Source of the DNA: a bacterium
Lineage (GTDB): Bacteria; Patescibacteriota; Minisyncoccia; Phycocordibacterales; UBA918
Length of the DNA: 64,000 nt
NCBI GenBank assembly: GCA_043719295.1
Contig: JAYSUD010000001.1
Span: 97,700 to 161,699 of the forward strand
Direction: 5' to 3'
Below are positions 33,160-35,611 of the stretch, in pieces. Both the position numbers and the translations under genes were made by a program. Each line of letters begins with the position of its first letter. Within the stretch, counting starts at the first letter, position 1. The notes beneath the pieces are model-generated. The model saw nothing but the letters and a program-made list of their open reading frames with translations. It was not told the origin of the DNA and made no database searches.

Positions 33160-33161
33160 AT

Positions 33162-33479
33162 ATGAAAAAAACTCTTAAAACAATAGTATTAGTTCTGAAC
33201 TCACTACTTATTGTTTTTTGCGTTTCTAGAGCAACTGATTCTATTAGATACTGGGGTACTGGAGGTGAAGATGTTGTTGGTGGTACATTCTATCAAATGA
33301 TAATTGTGTTATTAATATGGTTTTTACCAGCAACTATACTTGCATTCTATACATATAAATTTATTAGATCAGATTTAAGTAATAAAATGTACTTAAAATT
33401 TTTTGCTGTGCTGACACCACTATTTATCGTACTTTTTTTATCCATAAAATTTATGTTTTCTATGTCGGATACCTTTTAG
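33162..33479 (+). CDS. Small polytopic membrane protein inserted in the atp operon
   Basis: 105 aa, 3 TM. Very AT-rich codon usage compared with the flanking atp genes. Confidence 0.4.
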   Translation: MKKTLKTIVLVLNSLLIVFCVSRATDSIRYWGTGGEDVVGGTFYQMIIVLLIWFLPATILAFYTYKFIRSDLSNKMYLKFFAVLTPLFIVLFLSIKFMFSMSDTF

Positions 33480-33480
33480 T

Positions 33481-33535
33481 AGTACTTTTAAGTAATAAGT
33501 TTCTAAAGGAAATTTATTACTCAGTGGTACTGAGT
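33481..33535. repeat. REP-like double-hairpin repeat (copy 1)
   Basis: AGTACTTTTAAGTAATAAGTTTCTAAAGGAAATTTATTACTCAGTGGTACTGAGT: hairpins GTAATAAGTTT/AAATTTATTAC and ACTCAGT-GGT-ACTGAGT. Confidence 0.7.
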
Positions 33536-33542
33536 AAAATAC

Positions 33543-33890
33543 ATGGAATCGAAAATTAAATTTAAAAATGTGGACTATAACAAGACTTCTCAAAGTTTTT
33601 TAAATAATCCTATTTTGACATATCATTTTATTGCTCTTTCAGTAGCAAATTTAATTATATTTTTCTTGCTTTTCACTAGTATACTTGGATTAGTTATATT
33701 TTTCTTGTCAGGTATATTTTTAACCGTACTAGCACTGTCGTTATTGATTACAGTTGTAAGTTTGTCATTAATTTATTGTCAAAGAAAAAAATATATTCTT
33801 GGTTATATAACTTCAGGATCAATAATGGTTTTAGTTAATATATACATACTAATATTAATAATTAGGACTATTATCGAGTTATTTAAATAA
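33543..33890 (+). CDS. Small polytopic membrane protein inserted in the atp operon (second)
   Basis: 115 aa, 3 TM; flanked on both sides by the 55-bp REP-like repeat. Confidence 0.4.
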   Translation: MESKIKFKNVDYNKTSQSFLNNPILTYHFIALSVANLIIFFLLFTSILGLVIFFLSGIFLTVLALSLLITVVSLSLIYCQRKKYILGYITSGSIMVLVNIYILILIIRTIIELFK

Positions 33891-33897
33891 TGCATGT

Positions 33898-33955
33898 AGT
33901 ACTTAGTAATAAGTTCCTAAAGGGAATTTATTACTCAGTGGTACTGAGTTTCAAA
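33898..33955. repeat. REP-like double-hairpin repeat (copy 2)
   Basis: AGTACTTAGTAATAAGTTCCTAAAGGGAATTTATTACTCAGTGGTACTGAGTTTCAAAC; ~90% identical to copy 1. Confidence 0.7.
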
Positions 33956-34000
33956 CAAAAAATTATTAACGACTATTTACTAACAGCTAATTACTAAGAT

Positions 34001-35371
34001 ATGAAAACAGGAACAGTTACACAGATTATTGGACCGATTGTAGACGTACTTTTTGAAGAGGGAGTACCGTCACTTCAAAATGCACTTTTACTTAAAAAAA
34101 CTGACGGAAGCACTATCACATTAGAGGTCGCACAACACATTGGACTCAATCGAGTGCGTGCTATTGCGATGCAGGACACGCAGGGACTTGAACGAGGACT
34201 CACTGTTACAGATACTGAAGCAGCAATCTCTGTTCCTGTAGGAATTGCGTCACTTGGACGTCTCTTTAACGTACTTGGGGAGACGCTTGATGGAGGCGAA
34301 AGTCTTGCAACTACAACAAAACGTGCAATTCACCAAATTGCTCCAGAGTTTGTTGATCAGTCGACAAAGACAGAGGTGTTTGAAACTGGAATTAAGTCTG
34401 TTGACTTGCTCGCTCCCTTTATTAAAGGAGGAAAAGTAGGACTGTTTGGAGGAGCGGGAGTAGGGAAGACCGTACTCATCCAAGAGCTTATTCACAATGT
34501 GGCAAGTAACCACGGAGGATATTCTGTGTTTGCAGGAGTTGGAGAACGGGTACGTGAAGGTAACGATTTGTACCACGAAATGAAAGATTCAGGAGTACTT
34601 GCAAAAACAGCACTCGTGTTTGGACAGATGAACGAAGTTCCAGGAGCCCGTGCACGAGTAGGTCTAACCGGACTTACTATGGCGGAAGCTTTACGTGATG
34701 GAGAAGGAGGAAAGGATGTACTGTTCTTTATGGACAATGTGTTCCGCTTCACACAAGCAGGACAAGAAGTATCGTCACTTCTTGGACGTGTATCATCAGC
34801 CGTTGGGTACCAACCGACACTCGCTGAAGAGATGGGTAAGATGCAAGAACGTATTACCTCAACAAAGAAAGGTTCTATTACGTCTATTCAAGCCGTATAC
34901 GTGCCAGCTGACGACCTAACAGACCCTGCTCCAGCAACAACCTTCTCACACCTAGACTCGACTGTGTCACTATCACGACAACTTGCGTCACTTGGAATCT
35001 ATCCCGCAATTGACCCACTTGAAAGTAATTCTTCAGCGCTTGATCCAATGATTGTTGGAGAAGAACACTACCGTGTTGCACAACAAGTAAAGCAAGTACT
35101 GCAACGATACAAAGACTTACAAGACATTATCGCTATCTTAGGTATTGAAGAACTTTCTGAAGCCGACAAAACGCTCGTGTACCGAGCACGAAAGATCCAA
35201 CGATTTTTGTCACAACCATTTAGTGTAGCTGAGGTATTTACTGGAGCACCTGGAAAGTATGTACCCCTTGCAGACACTATCAAAGGCTTCGGAGAAATCC
35301 TAGACGGAAAACACGACGACAAAAACGAACAAGCTTTCTACATGAAAGGATCTATAGAAGAGGTAGTTTAA
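34001..35371 (+). CDS. atpD: F-type ATP synthase subunit beta
   Basis: P-loop [17 protein letters not shown]; DELSEED-region analogue [10 protein letters not shown]. Confidence 0.95.
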
Positions 35372-35377
35372 TTGTTT

Positions 35378-35587
35378 ATGGTTACGCGTAAAAAGGCTGT
35401 AGTGTGTCTATTTAGCATTAGTATTATATATCTCATTGTGTTGGTGTTAAGTAACTACAGTGGATGTGGCTTTTGTTTTTCTGGAAACTGCACATGTAAA
35501 TGTTACGGTATTGATGTTGAATCAGGCTTTCTTGGATTCCAAAGTGGATGTATAGGACCTAGTGAAAGTATTGAACAGAAAATCTAA
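35378..35587 (+). CDS. Small TM plus Cys-rich protein inserted between atpD and atpC
   Basis: MVTRKKAVVCLFSISIIYLIVLVLSNYSGCGFCFSGNCTCKCYGID...: 9 Cys in 69 aa. The listed ORF uses an upstream TTG. Confidence 0.3.
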   Translation: MVTRKKAVVCLFSISIIYLIVLVLSNYSGCGFCFSGNCTCKCYGIDVESGFLGFQSGCIGPSESIEQKI

Positions 35588-35611
35588 TAGTTCTCACTCA
35601 TTAATAAATTT

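Follow-up and report, generated by a model that had tools for sequence, protein, structure and literature searches.

The 64-kb stretch of contig JAYSUD010000001.1 analysed here (hereafter the window; GC content 0.387) carries on its plus strand an F1Fo ATP synthase operon with additional genes at two of its junctions: two small open reading frames (ORFs), each followed by a copy of the same hairpin, lie between the genes for the gamma and beta subunits, and a third small ORF lies between those for the beta and epsilon subunits. The host genome is that of a member of the Patescibacteria (Parcubacteria, Kaiserbacteria-like), the best relatives of its atpG gene, 63-69% identical, being found in metagenome-assembled Patescibacteria labelled Kaiserbacteria, Parcubacteria or Paceibacterota. 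From the ORF listing and Pfam the order of the operon is atpB-atpE-atpF-atpH-atpA-atpG, ORF105, hairpin r1, ORF115, hairpin r2, atpD, ORF71 and atpC; an initial annotation of this DNA had arrived at the same gene order, which was borne out with Pfam confirmation of every atp gene. The core genes are atpB (a subunit; 28269..29156; Pfam ATP-synt_A, E 6.8e-39), atpE (c subunit, 88 aa; 29250..29516; PF00137 called on contigs with an identical protein), atpF (b subunit; 29694..30134; Pfam ATP-synt_B, E 4.7e-18), atpH (a short delta subunit of 128 aa; 30154..30540; Pfam OSCP, E 2.9e-6, profile positions 64-171 only), atpA (alpha subunit, 522 aa; 30577..32145; 60-85% identity to the alpha genes at the same position in relatives), atpG (gamma subunit; 32257..33159; Pfam ATP-synt, E 1.7e-83), atpD (beta subunit; 34001..35371; Pfam ATP-synt_ab, E 4.1e-69) and atpC (epsilon subunit, 81 aa; 35612..35857; Pfam ATP-synt_DE_N, E 5.6e-19). 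None of the operon genes is preceded by a Shine-Dalgarno-like sequence (starts within 28240-35612), the leaders being A/U-rich.

The three additional ORFs are read in the same direction. ORF105 (33162..33479) starts 2 nt past the atpG stop codon and, like ORF115 (33543..33890), is predicted to encode about three transmembrane (TM) segments, a simple hydropathy count made with our own script agreeing in this with the initial annotation; both are also, as had been remarked there, more AT-rich than the atp genes (GC 0.28 and 0.23, respectively, vs 0.45 for atpD). ORF71 extends over 35378..35587 from an ATG (69 aa), or from a TTG at 35372 (71 aa), and its product was described as a TM segment followed by a Cys-rich stretch with nine cysteines; the N-terminal hydrophobic helix and the Cys-rich tail are indeed present, but the cysteines number seven. 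When each spacer was subjected to 5000 dinucleotide shuffles and the longest sense ORF was compared with the observed one, a sense ORF of at least the observed length was obtained in none of the shuffles for ORF105 and ORF115 and in 9/5000 for ORF71. In all three cases the annotated frame ranks first of six by window codon usage, with scores below those of the atp genes, as expected of young or foreign genes. On the evidence of their sequence, the three ORFs are real genes. Neither they nor P0004, the homologue of ORF71 described below, have a match in Pfam, NCBIfam, PHROGs or PADLOC.

All three are of very restricted occurrence: among about 50 loci, ORF105 was found only in L002, ORF71 only in L103 and ORF115 nowhere else. 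The ORF105 orthologue (P0002, 90% identical) occupies the same place on the ENA contig L002, and the dN/dS ratio of 0.22 between the two indicates that ORF105 is, as far as this pair tells, under purifying selection; the synonymous divergence (dS) between the window and L002 amounts to 0.24 for ORF105, 1.59 for atpG and 0.77 for atpD. ORF115 matches itself alone among 5.8 billion clusters, and a search of viral contigs yielded 198 pattern matches of which none was confirmed. Its derivation from ORF105 as a diverged tandem duplicate was considered and rejected (BLASTP E 0.69, no nucleotide similarity).

For ORF71, no gene is called at its spot on an identical Logan contig and a word-index search returned no candidates; an exhaustive phmmer search retrieved a sole homologue, P0004 (75 aa, 38% identity, E 3.1e-10), whose gene in L103 occupies the atpD-atpC interval and overlaps the atpD stop codon. 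L103 is as distant from the window as the other relatives (gamma 65%, beta 85% identity), and its atpG-atpD spacer contains the hairpin and no additional gene. ORF71 and P0004 have GCG, SG, TCKCYGI, LGF and CIGPS in common, and P0004 displays a putative lipobox-like LIGC. A two-sequence hidden Markov model made from both found no further member in the same set of about 50 loci, and an AlphaFold2 prediction for ORF71 aligned with P0004 gave only the N-terminal helix, with a predicted local distance difference test score (pLDDT) of 51.7. Two long matches to ORF71, P0005 (which we take to be saposin-like from its appearance) and P0006, are repetitive Cys-rich proteins and were treated as compositional matches.

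The hairpin and the junction it occupies

Downstream of both ORF105 and ORF115 lies a copy of a direct repeat (33482-33535 and 33896-33949; 54 nt, 89% identical, 414 nt apart) that we refer to as the type B hairpin. A covariance model built from eight hairpin copies (model R1) matches the first copy, r1, over 33479..33535 with 77.7 bits and the second, r2, over 33896..33949 with 86.6 bits, both on the plus strand, the predicted folds having free energies of -21.2 kcal/mol (z -4.9) and -23.9 kcal/mol (z -5.2), respectively. The first base of r1 is the G that ends the ORF105 stop codon, and r2 is the copy that retains the conserved 3' flank; the two differ by a compensatory change, UUUC/GAAA vs UUCC/GGAA. 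The repeat had been described as a double hairpin; each copy is rather one long imperfect hairpin, although an alternative 7-bp mini-hairpin is possible at the 3' end. The element opens with GTAGT in most members and with GTAGTAC in both window copies, its conserved ends read GTAGTRCTNAGT and ACTCRGTGGTACYGAGT, and the motif ACTCAGTGGTACTGAGT preceded by a variable stem is found upstream of atpD in relatives. Between r2 and atpD lies an AU-rich atpD leader (33950..34000, plus strand) with TTTCAAAC and ATTATTAA, motifs that are common to relatives and that also follow the hairpin in L002, L007, L012, L017 and L010. In two metagenome contigs (L083, 2110-2200; L089, 1550-1640) the interval between the hairpin and atpD contains a common motif, GTTAGAGGTT..CTCTAAC, followed by ACCTCTAACGGGGT.

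The fold is supported by covariation. Over 28 distinct hairpin sequences 96% of the cells are paired and 11 of the 19 pairs exhibit compensatory changes, a level reached by none of 500 shuffles; there is hardly any variation at the base of the hairpin and in 17 nt on its 3' side, whereas the apical stem is free to vary. One set of positions covaries three ways (column 12 U/C, column 59 A/G, column 69 U/C), so that two alternative partners are available to the middle segment, the 5' arm and the 3' segment, pairing with the latter giving the 7-bp mini-hairpin. In 27 of the 28 sequences the fold has greater stability on the sense than on the antisense strand (mean -24.3 vs -19.0 kcal/mol, p = 2e-8) because of conserved G-U pairs, an asymmetry which points to a transcript or to sense-strand single-stranded DNA. 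The position with respect to translation is constrained too: the stop codon of the upstream ORF is the UAG of the hairpin GUAG head in 15 of 33 cases, lies at most 9 nt upstream of the head in 10 and falls inside the 5' arm in 3, and in L015, L098, L101 and L103 it is the atpG stop codon itself that coincides with the UAG of the head. A ribosome terminating there would therefore cover the 5' arm.

A consensus scan for sigma-70 promoters and intrinsic terminators gave counts not above those of shuffles, with neither kind of site at r1 or r2. The stems are AU-rich and the 3' flanks read AAAAUAC (r1) and UUCAAAC (r2), with no U tract; relatives possess strong canonical U-tract terminators after atpC. 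Thus, the hairpin does not qualify as a canonical terminator. A promoter inside the operon, between hairpin and atpD, was likewise discarded, the gap measuring only 24-35 nt in several relatives and no -35/-10 pair being conserved. For 28000-36700, a search of Rfam 15 with E values up to 1 yielded no relevant match, and eight related loci gave nothing at gathering score, and in the literature we found neither a described atpG-atpD stem-loop nor repeats of the repetitive extragenic palindromic (REP) type in Patescibacteria.

In the sequences searched, the hairpin is confined to this locus. When model R1 was run over the window and 35 related loci (523 kb), all sense-strand matches fell in atpG-atpD spacers, and in the window only r1 and r2 matched with all filters off; an unbiased, metagenome-wide pattern scan (GTAGTNCNNAGTN{15,45}ACTCRGTRRTACYGAGT) gave 20 matches, every one of them between atpG and atpD on the sense strand. 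Our census, L103 included, comprises 35 copies and 32 non-redundant loci, and the element is also present in operons without additional genes at this junction (L012, L015, L017, L098, L101 and L103). The initial annotation had taken the repeat for a REP-like mobile one, a description that we abandon given that the only two copies in 64 kb are both here and that elsewhere it occurs only in atpG-atpD spacers. To judge from these comparisons, the hairpin is a clade-specific structured element, resident in the atpG-atpD spacer and vertically inherited.

The spacer itself is highly variable. Over about 40 Patescibacteria loci it measures from 19 to 1844 nt (median 290) and reaches at least 300 nt in 19/40, whereas each of the other six junctions of the operon does so in 0 to 4 loci, atpD-atpC being the highest with 4/35. 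The genes accommodated in it, which we call guests, sit between atpG and the hairpin. Most encode proteins of 60-140 aa, often 100-116 aa, with 2-3 TM segments, and are orphans without mutual similarity; others specify soluble proteins of one family, about 110 aa long (L004, L006), a deoxyribosyltransferase-like protein (L007, L102), a NUDIX protein (L025), a 23S-IVS protein (L026) or an MNT/HepT pair with Ham1 (L029), and HicA with a neighbouring HicB-like ORF is found in the atpD-atpC gap of L006. The comparison of related operons suggested by the initial annotation thus gave the opposite of a common set of ORFs in all relatives, and its description of ORF105, ORF115 and ORF71 as lineage-specific additions to an otherwise canonical operon stands, the relatives holding other guests or none.

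The closest relative, L002 (atpD 95% identical at the amino acid level), has the arrangement atpG-ORF105-hairpin-atpD, with a single hairpin and without ORF115, so that in the window ORF115 plus one hairpin represents a 414-bp indel bounded by direct repeats. In the one hairpin of L002 the 5' side resembles r1, and the stem and 3' flank resemble r2. Beyond atpD, the L002 sequence bears no relation to ORF71, identity dropping to 0.3-0.4. The contig stops 103 nt after atpD (L002, 2191-2293), at an inverted repeat of 15 bp (AACTATACTTTGTGC...GCACAAAGTATAGTT) that may represent another insertion or repeat. Stacking recurs in L097 (ORF-hairpin-ORF-hairpin), and L010 has a hairpin-ORF-hairpin arrangement with two divergent copies. 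Exact-protein look-ups with atpC and atpE provided no further strain variants covering the atpG-atpD junction. A lateral exchange of the hairpin together with its guest, which L091 had suggested, was dismissed, as L091 groups with L004 at the nucleotide level without any anomaly.

A dispersed repeat and a Y1 gene near the operon

In many relatives the atpD-atpC gap contains a structured element, here called type A, some 110 nt in length, and a second covariance model (R2) was built only from these atpD-atpC copies. In the window it detects seven copies, all on the plus strand (1523-1641, 29524-29641, 42377-42495, 44100-44214, 52282-52395, 56819-56937 and 57569-57688), each located 5-15 nt past the stop codon of a co-directional plus-strand ORF. 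One of them, 29524..29641 (91.6 bits, E 1e-25), lies in the atpE-atpF spacer and begins 8 nt after the atpE stop codon. The type A fold is a long irregular hairpin with conserved internal loops, in which 29 of 33 pairs are compensatory, and it has no Rfam match. In the atp operons of relatives the element occupies the atpE-atpF, atpD-atpC, atpB-atpE and even atpG-atpD gaps, the last of these in L085 and L100. The clade therefore owns a REP-like family that colonises operon junctions and is distinct from the type B hairpin: neither model detects the other type. Both types contain GT[T/A]GTACT and GTAC motifs; a common origin would be speculative.

The operon is followed by a gene of the Y1 family (IS200-like or RAYT-like, i.e. 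resembling the REP-associated tyrosine transposases) on the minus strand (35941-36531), convergent with atpC, which matches Pfam Y1_Tnp with 34.2 bits (cut-off 23) and the NCBIfam RAYT model with 34.7 bits, below its cut-off of 80. Hairpins of the form TCCGAGGTCGGAYCTCG are found at both of its ends and once internally (region 35906-36561), their sequence being unlike that of type B. In L087 and L031, too, a Y1 homologue adjoins atpC and is accompanied by hairpins of a similar kind (AAGTTCGAG...CTCGAACTT). A hairpin located in the window where atpC and the Y1 gene converge (35906..35938, assigned to neither strand) has an outer stem, ACTCAGT/ACTGAGT, that is common to the type B element, and ACTGAGTTTCAAAC at the 3' end of r2 (33943-33956) finds a 14-nt exact inverted match in GTTTGAAACTCAGT (35900-35913) at the hairpin after atpC. 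This latter hairpin resembles the type B mini-hairpin with a GC-rich palindrome inside the loop.

Interpretation of the hairpin and its guests

The reading that we favour, and hold to be probable while leaving appreciable room for others, is that the type B hairpin is a vertically inherited intercistronic mRNA element, that the junction preceding it is a permissive slot and that the three ORFs are lineage-specific hitchhikers. A conserved, strand-specific structure at a fixed transcript position, as expected of a cis-acting intercistronic mRNA hairpin, is what the alignments contain; its role at the RNA level and the reason why the slot is permissive are what we infer. The hairpin would act on the sense strand, most probably in the mRNA, where it starts at or a few bases from the stop codon of the preceding ORF and is followed by the AU-rich atpD leader. 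Its most likely function would be that of intercistronic punctuation, as a barrier or as a processing/stability hairpin that closes the upstream mRNA segment and insulates the initiation of atpD. It might also operate as a translation-sensitive switch, in which the 5' arm and the 3' segment would compete for the middle segment and the 5' arm would be covered by a ribosome terminating at the UAG of the head. DNA entering between atpG and the hairpin would leave both atpG and the atpD leader undisturbed, and the junction could thereby have turned into a permissive slot in which unrelated small genes arrive, replace one another and disappear, riding on the transcription of the operon. Two guests would be stacked here, each with its own hairpin copy 3', and, with the 414-bp unit of ORF115 plus hairpin bounded by direct repeats, recombination within the hairpin could add or remove the unit; ORF71 would occupy the second variable junction, atpD-atpC, as a third guest. 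The guests, although real genes, would not count among the core subunits of the enzyme.

Several observations weigh against this reading. Sense-strand single-stranded DNA fits the fold asymmetry equally well, and the mini-hairpin rests on one covarying column, possibly the product of a single evolutionary event. A permissive slot alone leaves unexplained both the duplication of the hairpin exactly at its own borders in three lineages and the preponderance of small membrane proteins among the guests. Moreover, the low dS of ORF105 may reflect recent lateral exchange, or only a constraint of AT composition, and the occurrence of an ORF71 homologue in the same position of a lineage 65% identical in gamma would leave room for a functional link to the enzyme.

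The stacked ORF-hairpin modules of the window and L097, together with the hairpin-ORF-hairpin arrangement of L010, could alternatively mean that the hairpin is a recombination site (attC-like or a Y1/HUH target), ORF plus hairpin modules entering and leaving in a site-specific manner and using a well-expressed essential operon as their platform for expression, which we regard as unlikely. Such cassette capture would fit a duplicated unit that matches the conserved element exactly and an L002 hairpin that is an r1/r2 hybrid, as recombination inside the site would give; the element begins with GTAG, as in GTAG-tagged REPs (PMC3733652), a Y1 transposase-like gene adjoins atpC in the window, L087 and L031, and the guest set, with its orphans and toxin-antitoxin modules, is integron-cassette-like. 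The guests resemble integron cassettes with attC in being small, promoterless, often orphan and stackable ORFs, each with an imperfect inverted repeat 3', and the repeat resembles attC in its conserved ends, variable central stem and bulged bases; the likeness is nonetheless one of architecture only. Neither GTAGTRCTNAGT nor ACTCRGTGGTACYGAGT contains the R'' (RYYYAAC) or R' (GTTRRRY) cores, the genes called within about 8 kb upstream (L105) and 6.5 kb downstream (L001) give no integrase-family Pfam match, and no attI is nearby. In addition, most guests lie upstream of a single hairpin, without a second site, the element is fixed at one locus in at most two copies and is present there without cassettes, the two L010 copies are divergent and not hybrid, and most loci with the hairpin lack the Y1 gene, whose own flanking hairpins differ in sequence. 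That the hairpin would serve as a recombination site for single-gene cassettes inside an essential, constitutively expressed operon, an integrase-distant integron-like platform in Patescibacteria, is quite doubtful; if it were so, the alternative pairing of the hairpin would serve recombination and not an RNA function. As for the proposal of the initial annotation that mobile repeats, of the REP type or the MITE type (miniature transposable elements with inverted repeats), brought the small membrane genes into the operon, it must be regarded as very improbable. The hairpin is REP-like in shape, being an imperfect palindrome with a GTAG head downstream of an ORF, and the genome owns the dispersed type A family, which colonises atp junctions in the clade and reaches the atpG-atpD slot in L085 and L100; however, the 54-nt hairpin itself is not dispersed, models R1 and R2 keep the two element types apart, and the presence of the hairpin in empty operons indicates a resident element that predates the guests.

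The small proteins could also be lineage-specific accessory subunits, assembly factors or regulators of the enzyme, functional counterparts of AtpI, AtpZ or AtpR whose rapid evolution would hide any homology, and this too we find improbable. With AtpI, AtpZ and AtpR they share the encoding of small hydrophobic proteins within an ATP synthase operon, but the guests are placed differently, the genes for those proteins being found upstream of atpB or, as in N-ATPase operons, in the atpC-atpB interval. The absence of an ORF of note in the 245 nt upstream of atpB, the recurrent size and TM content of most slot guests, their tight packing and co-orientation with the operon, the purifying selection apparent on ORF105 and the location of the sole ORF71 homologue also between beta and epsilon in a distinct lineage would speak for such a role. 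Against it, the TM guests have no sequence similarity to each other, the three ORFs give no Pfam match to ATP-synt_I (AtpI), ATPase_gene1 (AtpZ) or AtpR even at E up to 1, and none in NCBIfam, in many close relatives the slot is empty or taken by soluble guests (NUDIX, toxin-antitoxin, deoxyribosyltransferase-like), and the nearest relative lacks ORF115 and has a sequence unrelated to ORF71 after atpD. Since nothing is conserved across relatives, ORF105 and ORF115 are, from their distribution, unlikely to be accessory subunits, the alternative that the initial annotation had offered. It is, finally, rather unlikely that the hairpin is an internal attenuator uncoupling atpD-atpC from the upstream genes, with the 5' arm as anti-terminator and the 3' mini-hairpin as terminator. 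The three-segment covariation does back mutually exclusive pairings, UUUCAAAC lies 3' of the mini-hairpin in about half of the sequences, and the same ACUCAGU...ACUGAGUUUCAAAC module is found 3' of the Y1 gene on the minus strand, but the U tract is of three U at most and unconserved, other members having UCAUUAUU and UCCAAAC instead, and genuine terminators in these genomes consist of long GC stems and U tracts. Attenuation before atpD would moreover be counter-intuitive, as from the established stoichiometry beta should be needed at three times the amount of gamma.

For an intercistronic mRNA hairpin, the closest functional analogues would be mRNA stabilisers of the REP type (PMC3733652) and, in E. 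coli, the conformational switch at atpHA, the latter as far as it is outlined where PMC12548453 cites Rex et al. 1994. REPs of the GTAG superfamily are short imperfect palindromes with a GTAG tag at one end (PMC3733652). Like the REP elements and bacterial interspersed mosaic elements (BIMEs) that stabilise intercistronic mRNA of the E. coli malE-malF type (PMC3733652), the hairpin is an imperfectly palindromic sequence headed by GTAG, follows closely on a coding region in a co-directional array and would plausibly be transcribed into an RNA hairpin setting the fate of an mRNA segment. Unlike them, it occurs at one locus per genome, always atpG-atpD, with no high dispersed copy number in the 64-kb window, the 523 kb of related loci or the 20 metagenome matches; it measures 54-62 nt vs 20-40 nt for REPs, its GTA is base-paired whereas the REP tag is unpaired, and no cognate RAYT flanked by the same repeats accompanies it, the Y1 gene at 35941-36531 included. 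With the E. coli atpHA switch, within the account of it given in PMC12548453, the hairpin may share the character of an intercistronic atp structure possibly dependent on a ribosome terminating upstream and tuning subunit ratios; measured against that same account, the junction here is gamma/beta, the atpD start is left unsequestered 24-100 nt downstream and this genome makes no use of Shine-Dalgarno sequences. The junction also recalls chromosomal integration hotspots flanked by core genes, in that a short interval concentrates the turnover of unrelated accessory genes including toxin-antitoxin modules, but it differs from them in its situation within an essential operon, where it separates co-transcribed genes for subunits of a single enzyme, and in hosting mostly single tiny ORFs instead of islands.

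Essential multi-subunit operons are usually seen as closed to insertion, and here one ATP synthase junction is a gene-turnover hotspot across a clade of Patescibacteria, hosts with very small genomes and many orphan genes. The slot thus offers a concrete place to study how new small membrane proteins are acquired or born and then tested by selection. Two undescribed and well-supported RNA/DNA structures, the locus-specific gamma-beta hairpin and the dispersed post-stop element of about 110 nt, could show how long co-directional transcripts are punctuated without Shine-Dalgarno sequences. For annotation, small ORFs in the atpG-atpD slot should not be named ATP synthase subunits.

Minor features of the operon

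The epsilon subunit of 81 aa consists of the beta-sandwich domain only, without the C-terminal helical domain, a short epsilon being common to the relatives. The 251 residues matched in the a subunit span 216 profile positions, with an acidic, Ser-rich stretch in the middle of the protein (ESESHEKVEGASELHSETSSKSDVKETT...). The atpA-atpG spacer (32146-32256) comprises 111 nt with a GC content of about 0.27, and five relatives have 200-421 nt at the same junction; a 234-aa protein without Pfam match is encoded directly upstream of atpG in L103.

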